The position numbers were made by a program, and so were the translations under genes. This document shows positions 6,160-6,370 of a stretch of DNA of 30,137 nt, one piece after another. Source of the stretch: Escherichia coli (GTDB lineage Bacteria; Pseudomonadota; Gammaproteobacteria; Enterobacterales; Enterobacteriaceae); assembly GCF_003334355.1 (NCBI RefSeq), contig NZ_QOWP01000040.1; one strand, given 5' to 3'. The first letter of the stretch is position 1. Every line of letters begins with the position of its first letter. The notes below the pieces were generated by a model, which saw nothing but the letters and a program-made list of their open reading frames with translations, was not told where the DNA came from and searched no databases.

Positions 6160-6180
6160 CTGACAGCAGAAATCATGCCA
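6160..6180 (-). promoter_or_regulatory. Sigma54 (-24/-12) promoter for zraSR
   Basis: Minus strand reads TGGCATGATTTCTGCT, with GG and GC at consensus spacing (TGGCAC-N5-TTGCA type); about 30 bp upstream of the zraS start codon. Confidence 0.65.
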
Positions 6181-6231
6181 TCTTTTATCAGCGCTTACCC
6201 TGCGCTGTAACACAAAGGCTTAAGTTTCAAT

Positions 6232-6277
6232 GAGTAAAAATGACTCGCTACCCGCAGCAGGCGAGTCATTTTTACTC
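6232..6277. promoter_or_regulatory. ZraR enhancer (UAS): 17-bp perfect inverted repeat arms separated by 12 bp
   Basis: GAGTAAAAATGACTCGC (6232-6248) and GCGAGTCATTTTTACTC (6261-6277) are exact reverse complements; they sit between the two divergent sigma54 promoters. Confidence 0.75.
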
Positions 6278-6319
6278 GTTTATCATGCCAGATTACCCGT
6301 CATATCAGCGTTTCATCGT

Positions 6320-6335
6320 TGGCACGGAAGATGCA
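6320..6335 (+). promoter_or_regulatory. Sigma54 (-24/-12) promoter for zraP
   Basis: TGGCACGGAAGATGCA matches TGGCAC-N5-TTGCA with correct GG/GC spacing; GGAGG RBS at 6358-6362 and ATG at 6371 follow. Confidence 0.8.
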
Positions 6336-6370
6336 ATACCCGAAGTAAGACAACCACTGGAGGATTAACC

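Follow-up and report, generated by a model that had tools for sequence, protein, structure and literature searches.

The zraS-zraP intergenic spacer described here carries two sigma-54 promoters that face outward from a palindromic enhancer occupied by the response regulator ZraR, and there is very little doubt that it is the native control region of the Escherichia coli ZraPSR zinc/envelope-stress system. The spacer lies in a 30,137-nt stretch of E. coli DNA, hereafter the window, to which all positions refer. The circuit itself is already known: its control region was first described in 2001 (Leonhartsberger et al. 2001, J Mol Biol 307:93) and has been re-mapped by sigma-54 ChIP-seq, ZraR gSELEX, and ZraR ChIP-exo. 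The only increments that we add are an explicit ZraR-site consensus that holds across genera and the rules of spacing that accompany it.

The ZraPSR locus and its sigma-54 promoters

The ZraPSR set is complete in the window, with zraP divergent from zraSR and all three products scoring above the cut-offs of their NCBIfam equivalog models. The zraR gene (3435-4760, minus strand) encodes a response regulator dependent on sigma-54, an enhancer-binding protein of 441 aa that matches NF007689 over its full length (991 bits against a cut-off of 760) and has all of the activator motifs, with GAFTGA at residue 216, Walker A at residue 169, and the receiver Asp56 within DLVLCD (residues 51-56). The first gene of the zraSR operon, zraS (4757-6133, minus strand), encodes a 458-aa sensor histidine kinase (NF007688; 887 bits against a cut-off of 479), a call with which RefSeq concurs. 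On the opposite strand, zraP (6371-6790, plus strand) encodes a 139-aa periplasmic zinc-dependent chaperone and accessory regulator. Read from the ATG at 6371, the start also used by RefSeq, ZraP scores 279.5 bits against the NF008584 cut-off of 200, with residues 1-139 covering profile positions 1-145, a signal peptide running from Met1, and a GGAGG Shine-Dalgarno sequence at 6359-6363. The gene order purD-zraR-zraS / zraP-yjaH-hupA is that of K-12, and the flanking genes purH, purD, yjaH, hupA, yjaG, nfi, hemE, and nudC likewise keep their K-12 order.

The spacer between zraS and zraP measures 237 bp (6134-6370), and a 266-bp segment that includes all of it (6120-6385) is 100% identical to K-12 DH1, where RefSeq annotates the same genes on the identical sequence. 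Positions 6000-6500 were matched in 5,421 of 5,426 complete E. coli genomes, annotated as zraS and zraP throughout.

The window strain differs from K-12 in the length of ZraP and in the periplasmic-domain allele of ZraS. The Gly/Met-rich tail of ZraP (6740-6760) gives a protein of 139 aa here versus 141 aa in K-12 and most members of the E. coli cluster; the K-12 type has one additional GM unit in this repetitive tail, which varies further in other genera. The periplasmic sensor segment of ZraS (5540-6010, codons ~41-195) is a sharply different allele from that of K-12, with 97 identities in 162 alignment columns (about 60%) compared with 261 of 263 residues identical in the remainder of the protein. 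These two alleles are as divergent from each other as either is from Salmonella or Citrobacter (57-68%). The window-type allele is carried by 4,184 of the 5,426 complete E. coli genomes and also by Escherichia sp. MOD1 (92%), and the K-12 type, a minority form, resembles those of E. whittamii (93%) and E. albertii (83%). The pattern suggests either that the dimorphism is old and shared between species or that only the sensor domain was swapped by recombination.

The initial annotation of the window proposed a -24/-12 promoter facing each way out of the spacer. On the plus strand, TGGCACGGAAGATGCA at 6320-6335 has the GG-N10-GC arrangement, in a context resembling TGGCAC-N5-TTGCW, expected of such a promoter and was confirmed as the zraP promoter (TTGGCACGGAAGATGCA, 6319-6335), with GG at 6321-6322 and GC at 6333-6334. 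Its minus-strand counterpart, TGGCATGATTTCTGCT, is the reverse complement of 6165-6180 and has the same arrangement; the zraSR promoter comprises ATGGCATGATTTCTGCT (6165-6181), whose GG and GC are complementary to 6178-6179 and 6166-6167, respectively. The motif proposed on this strand is therefore real, but the span of 6160-6180 first assigned to it was about 5 nt too wide on its low side.

A matrix scan for RpoN sites, which had been suggested as a check, placed both promoters at the head of the window. Using a sigma-54 matrix built from 40 other intergenic E. coli ChIP-seq sites with the two zra sites left out (Bonocora et al. 2015), the zraSR promoter had the best score on either strand (17.9 bits) and the zraP promoter the second best (15.5 bits), compared with a training median of 15.7 bits. 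Matches of at least 15.5 bits are expected 0.27 times per random 30-kb window. Since the two top matches lie 138 bp apart and face outward with an inverted repeat between them, they are not a chance pairing.

Four lower scoring sigma-54-like matches, at 29907-29891 (minus strand), 11155-11171 (plus), 10747-10763 (plus), and 22765-22750 (minus), were rejected because their scores of 13.5-14.6 bits are at the level of random windows (median best score 14.4 bits), and a rough check near their estimated K-12 coordinates found no entry in the published ChIP-seq tables. One strict match to TGGCAC-N5-NTGCW falls inside rpoB. Within the spacer, a second occurrence of TGGCATGAT on the minus strand (6290-6282) was discarded, as it has no GC at -12 and is not conserved outside E. 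coli.

Both promoter motifs are letter-for-letter equal to K-12 sigma-54 ChIP-seq sites, OS38 for zraP and OS39 for zraS (PMC4591121), and on the strength of this identity sigma-54 occupancy in vivo can be ascribed to each of them. RpoN holoenzyme gSELEX also produced a peak in the zraP/zraS spacer, and in Salmonella the orthologous motifs are sigma-54 ChIP-chip sites, with the expression of both operons being sigma-54-dependent (PMC3844500). When the ChIP-seq study appeared, EcoCyc listed the two promoters as "predicted" (PMC4591121). Applying the rule of that study, in which the start lies 19 nt from the motif centre, we predict transcription starts near 6346 (plus strand), 25 nt before the zraP ATG, and near 6154 (minus strand), 21 nt before the zraS ATG. 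These distances equal those tabulated in PMC4591121 and correspond to predicted starts about 12 nt past the GC element. Neither sigma-70-like promoters nor intrinsic terminators were found in 6050-6450.

The inverted repeat and its occupancy by ZraR

A perfect 17-bp inverted repeat with a 12-nt spacer at 6232-6277 had been claimed as the shared enhancer, and it is exact at those coordinates. The left arm, GAGTAAAAATGACTCGC (6232-6248), and the right arm, GCGAGTCATTTTTACTC (6261-6277), are separated by TACCCGCAGCAG. No perfect inverted repeat in the window is longer, the runner-up having arms of 12 nt, and the longest arm in 60 Markov-1 random windows averaged 10 nt with a maximum of 12. The analytic chance expectation is 7.8e-5 for arms that are 17 nt or longer and have a spacer of up to 40 nt.

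Each arm contains a conserved 15-bp site (6232-6246 and 6263-6277) built around a core of the form GT-N7-AC, namely GTAAAAATGAC at 6234-6244 on the left and GTCATTTTTAC at 6265-6275 on the right. The site has the consensus GRGTAAAAATGACYC and is present in two copies, with 20 nt between the cores and the site centres (6239 and 6270) 31 bp apart, or approximately three helical turns. Each arm is also an internal pseudo-dyad, 10 of its 15 positions being self-complementary in the GT-N7-AC frame. The only two matches to the 15-bp site in the window are those inside the enhancer; no third ZraR-like site was found in the window, the only further match, with three mismatches at 28705, being at chance level.

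The enhancer is centred at 6254.5, midway between outward-facing promoters, with the predicted starts of zraP and zraSR 91.5 and 100.5 bp away, respectively. This agrees with the initial description of a textbook bacterial-enhancer geometry. Enhancers of NtrC-family activators are expected to have dyad-symmetric sites about 80-150 bp upstream of a promoter with conserved helical phasing, as is the case here. An IHF site between enhancer and promoter is frequent in NtrC-family systems, although not obligatory. The IHF consensus WATCAANNNNTTR was not found on either strand of 6134-6370 when up to one mismatch was allowed, which does not exclude the region from the enhancer class because some sigma-54 promoters work without IHF.

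Published binding data place ZraR on the repeat. In vitro, ZraR gSELEX recovered a single high-affinity target, the zraP/zraS spacer, in 81 of 86 clones (PMC8249747). In vivo, ChIP-exo detected ZraR peaks upstream of zraP and zraSR (PMC7657598), the strongest of which, peak_9, covers MG1655 positions 4201786-4201818 and lies at distances of 98 bp and 107 bp from the zraP and zraS starts, respectively (PMC7657598 supplement). As the window and K-12 have the same spacer, this peak corresponds to 6241-6273 in the window. It is 33 bp long, falls inside the claimed repeat (6232-6277), and stretches across the interval that separates the arm centres. Deletion of zraR in the presence of ZnCl2 abolishes the induction of zraP (log2 change of -12.7) and lowers the expression of zraS (log2 change of -3.2; PMC7657598 supplement). 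The assignment of the locus to a ZraR-autoregulated zinc envelope-stress circuit is accordingly supported by gene models, ChIP-seq sites, gSELEX, ChIP-exo, and the effect of zraR deletion on expression.

A weaker ZraR ChIP-exo peak is present at MG1655 4201673-4201698 (6361-6386 in the window), with a signal-to-noise ratio of 34 versus 73 for the main peak. It covers the ribosome-binding site and start codon of zraP, at about +15 to +40 relative to the predicted start, and no ZraR-like site was found under it. Our guess is that this peak may represent ZraR cross-linked through a DNA loop to the promoter-bound polymerase.

Conservation of the control region across enterobacteria

We collected 34 loci by ZraP alignment, using one genome per species, and a further three by exact protein look-up, covering Escherichia, Salmonella, Citrobacter, Kosakonia, "[Enterobacter] lignolyticus", Klebsiella, and Phytobacter. 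Among the enterobacterial loci, all 34 carry a sigma-54 motif on the plus strand, about 50 nt ahead of zraP, and another on the minus strand, about 190-200 nt ahead of zraP, with the palindrome between the two. In a phylogenetic footprint alignment of 18 sequences from six genera, 50 of the 64 columns in the four motif blocks are invariant versus 9 of 203 columns in the rest of the spacer, and the mean majority fraction is 0.96 versus 0.56. The zraSR promoter is invariant or nearly so at 16 of its 17 positions.

The core pair GTAAAAATGAC-N20-GTCATTTTTAC occurs exactly in 29 of the 39 loci fetched, and in five further enterobacterial loci it is present but either the spacer measures 21-22 nt or one position is mismatched. 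The distance between cores is mostly 20 nt, and 21-22 nt in a few Klebsiella, Phytobacter, and Citrobacter loci, and its sequence varies freely. The conserved unit is a 15-bp site present twice: the two added positions that make up the 17-bp arms vary even within E. coli, where one strain has 15 perfect pairs. The 17-bp enhancer unit initially proposed is thus perfect in the window but, as a unit, limited to some Escherichia. A candidate purine/pyrimidine covariation inside each arm (positions 2 and 14) was rejected, since the 18 sequences show independent R and Y degeneracy without compensation. The sole core change among the aligned sequences is in E. albertii (L008), where the left arm reads GAGTAAAAACGACTCAC, with a T-to-C substitution in the 11-bp core.

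Spacing is conserved as well. At every locus the enhancer centre is 98.5-101 bp from the predicted zraS start, and its distance from the predicted zraP start is 90.5-91.5 bp in Escherichia and 101.5-103.5 bp elsewhere. Over 36 sequences (35 loci and the window), the enhancer-promoter distances are constant save for this single 11-bp step. Sequence comparison thus indicates that selection keeps the spacing and not the intervening sequence. In all Escherichia sequences, 10-12 bp are missing from the interval that separates the enhancer from the zraP promoter (6278-6318 in the window) when compared with Salmonella, Citrobacter, Kosakonia, Klebsiella, and Phytobacter; the distance is shortened by 11 bp, one helical turn, and the zraS side is unchanged.

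A moderately conserved block (6196-6217, ACCCTG...ACACAAA) was also observed between the zraS promoter and the enhancer, at positions of about -42 to -63 relative to the predicted start of zraS. Within it C6199 and C6211 are invariant and A6197, G6202, and A6212 nearly invariant, and it did not match any of the motifs tried, IHF included.

Two Desulfovibrio loci (L037, 2170-2307; L038, 2288-2425) have distant ZraP-like genes divergent from a ZraS-like kinase. The ZraP-like gene of L037 scores 62.8 bits on the NCBIfam ZraP model, which is below the cut-off. Upstream, these genes carry an inverted repeat, in L037 GTAACTTTTTTAC-N20-GTAAAAAAGTTAC, that has the enteric 20-nt gap but flipped 13-nt arms (GT-N9-AC). 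This repeat is followed by an AT-rich stretch and then by a strong sigma-54 motif, TGGCACGCCGCTTGCT in L037. The combination of a ZraP-like gene with a sigma-54 promoter and a split palindrome may be much older than the enterobacteria.

Some annotations overlay the control region with open reading frames that are spurious or almost certainly so. A mechanical ORF list gives zraP as 6230-6790 (186 aa), its ATG overlapping the left enhancer arm. The initial annotation was correct in stating that this track wrongly extends zraP over the enhancer, since RefSeq and the NCBIfam ZraP model both start at 6371. The in-frame 5' extension (6230-6370, plus strand), 47 codons from the ATG at 6230, is noncoding and covers both the enhancer and the promoter. 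That ATG is not present outside Escherichia, the spacer is poorly conserved and has a 10-12 bp indel, and the predicted sigma-54 start near 6346 lies downstream of it; the 186-aa form of ZraP survives solely as an older annotation (P0002). Some RefSeq genomes also place a 42-aa "hypothetical protein" (WP_001297563.1) at 6240-6368 on the plus strand, over the enhancer's right half and the sigma-54 promoter of zraP. Since other genera show no conservation of this region as coding sequence, the call is almost certainly spurious. In Salmonella enterica, a gene caller lengthened zraS (L002, 850-2436) to 528 aa, to within 64 bp of the zraP start; this call overruns the enhancer from the opposite side and mirrors the E. 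coli zraP artefact.

The most serious alternative to a shared enhancer is that the arms work independently, the left arm serving zraSR only and the right arm zraP only. Each arm could bind a dimer alone given its internal pseudo-dyad (10 of 15 positions, GT-N7-AC), and the two promoters respond unequally to the loss of ZraR (log2 -12.7 for zraP versus -3.2 for zraS). The core-to-core spacer, however, is held at 20 nt (21-22 nt in a few loci) despite its free sequence, which argues for cooperative use of both sites, and a single 33-bp ChIP-exo peak spans the interval between the two site centres. Moreover, NtrC-family activators function as hexamers, for which a single dimer does not suffice, as established for NtrC, and in the case of NorR all three sites are essential (PMC2831303). 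Given the fixed inter-core spacing and the single peak, independence of the arms is disfavoured and we regard it as improbable.

We attach still less weight to the suggestion that the repeat acts as a nucleic acid structure, whether an RNA hairpin, a terminator or insulator against read-through, or a DNA cruciform. As single-stranded DNA, a 61-nt stretch does fold into a 21-pair hairpin of -18.8 kcal/mol (z = -7.7 versus shuffles). The repeat nevertheless lies in untranscribed DNA, because both predicted starts point away from it, and no terminator-like site was found, the T-run being inside the stem and not after it. Among 17 distinct sequences, 12 of the 17 "pairs" never vary and one pair is broken in 7 sequences, and covariation does not exceed the shuffled control, with 83 of 500 shuffles reaching the observed score. 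Invariant pairs combined with a lack of covariation indicate that the symmetry of the arms results from the same sequence being conserved twice and not from pairing, and ZraR occupancy mapping onto the repeat also speaks against a structural role, which we consider very improbable.

Finally, although the other sigma-54-like matches in the window (13.5-14.6 bits) are at about the random level, the probability that the motifs are chance matches or decayed relics without present function is negligible given the chance expectations for the repeat (7.8e-5) and for each promoter score (0.27 per 30 kb) and the invariance of the elements across genera within a diverged spacer, and this reading is refuted by published in vivo occupancy by sigma-54 and ZraR and by expression data on the identical K-12 sequence.

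A proposed shared-enhancer mechanism and its relation to known systems

We propose that closed complexes of sigma-54 RNA polymerase would sit on the two outward-facing promoters of zraP and zraSR until periplasmic zinc or lead, or envelope stress, led ZraS to phosphorylate ZraR. ZraR would then assemble on the palindromic enhancer midway between both promoters and, by looping of the DNA, its AAA+ ring (with the GAFTGA loops) would open one or other promoter using ATP. The predicted output is the ZraP chaperone, which would feed back on ZraS, together with more ZraS and ZraR (positive autoregulation). Looping in this scheme would need no IHF.

Each arm (GRGTAAAAATGACYC, GT-N7-AC core) is probably the site of one ZraR dimer and, by analogy with NtrC at glnAp2, the two sites three turns apart probably nucleate a hexamer. 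Because the arms are pseudo-dyads with centres 31 bp apart, the palindrome as a whole is probably a pair of dimer sites nucleating one hexamer. A more specific proposal, for which we judge the chances to be even, is that the two mirror-image dimer sites nucleate a single hexamer that is equidistant from, and in helical phase with, both promoters, which compete for one ring. If true, selection on phase would account for the loss by Escherichia of exactly one turn (11 bp) on the zraP side amid otherwise free drift, and the locus would offer a clean natural example of an enhancer shared between promoters and locked in phase without IHF.

A 2016 review of Salmonella entered the ZraR enhancer consensus as "NK", not known, and the comparison across genera gives a compact one (GRGTAAAAATGACYC twice, with 20 nt between cores). 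The spacing rule should be useful to builders of zinc or lead biosensors on the zraP promoter. The locus also has practical value as a positive control for scanning, as sequence alone yielded a real sigma-54 enhancer/promoter pair and an ORF-calling artefact.

The closest known system is the zraP/zraSR (hydHG) spacer of E. coli K-12 with its ZraR (HydG) site, which is the same locus with a control region that shows no differences. HydG is reported to bind two inverted repeats with a 14-bp spacer there. The NtrC enhancer at glnAp2 (E. coli/Salmonella) has two dyad sites, spaced by about three helical turns and situated some 100 bp or more ahead of a sigma-54 promoter, and the NtrC hexamer at this promoter is made of DNA-bound dimers plus one from solution. 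ZraR is a response regulator of the same family, with site centres 31 bp apart and 90-100 bp from the predicted starts. The recognition sequence differs, however, and the NtrC enhancer serves one promoter, whereas that of ZraR lies symmetrically between two divergent ones. Unlike those at glnAp2, the ZraR sites are also mirror images of each other, creating a long perfect palindrome.

NorR, another NtrC-family activator with a Fis-type helix-turn-helix, provides a second parallel. It binds inverted repeats built on a GT-N7-AC core, the frame of GTAAAAATGAC (PMC2831303), and in both systems the sites are in a divergent intergenic region beside the regulator gene (PMC2831303; PMC8249747). The norR-norVW region differs in having three NorR sites, an IHF site, and one sigma-54 promoter (norV), whereas the ZraR region combines two sites and no recognisable IHF site with two sigma-54 promoters.
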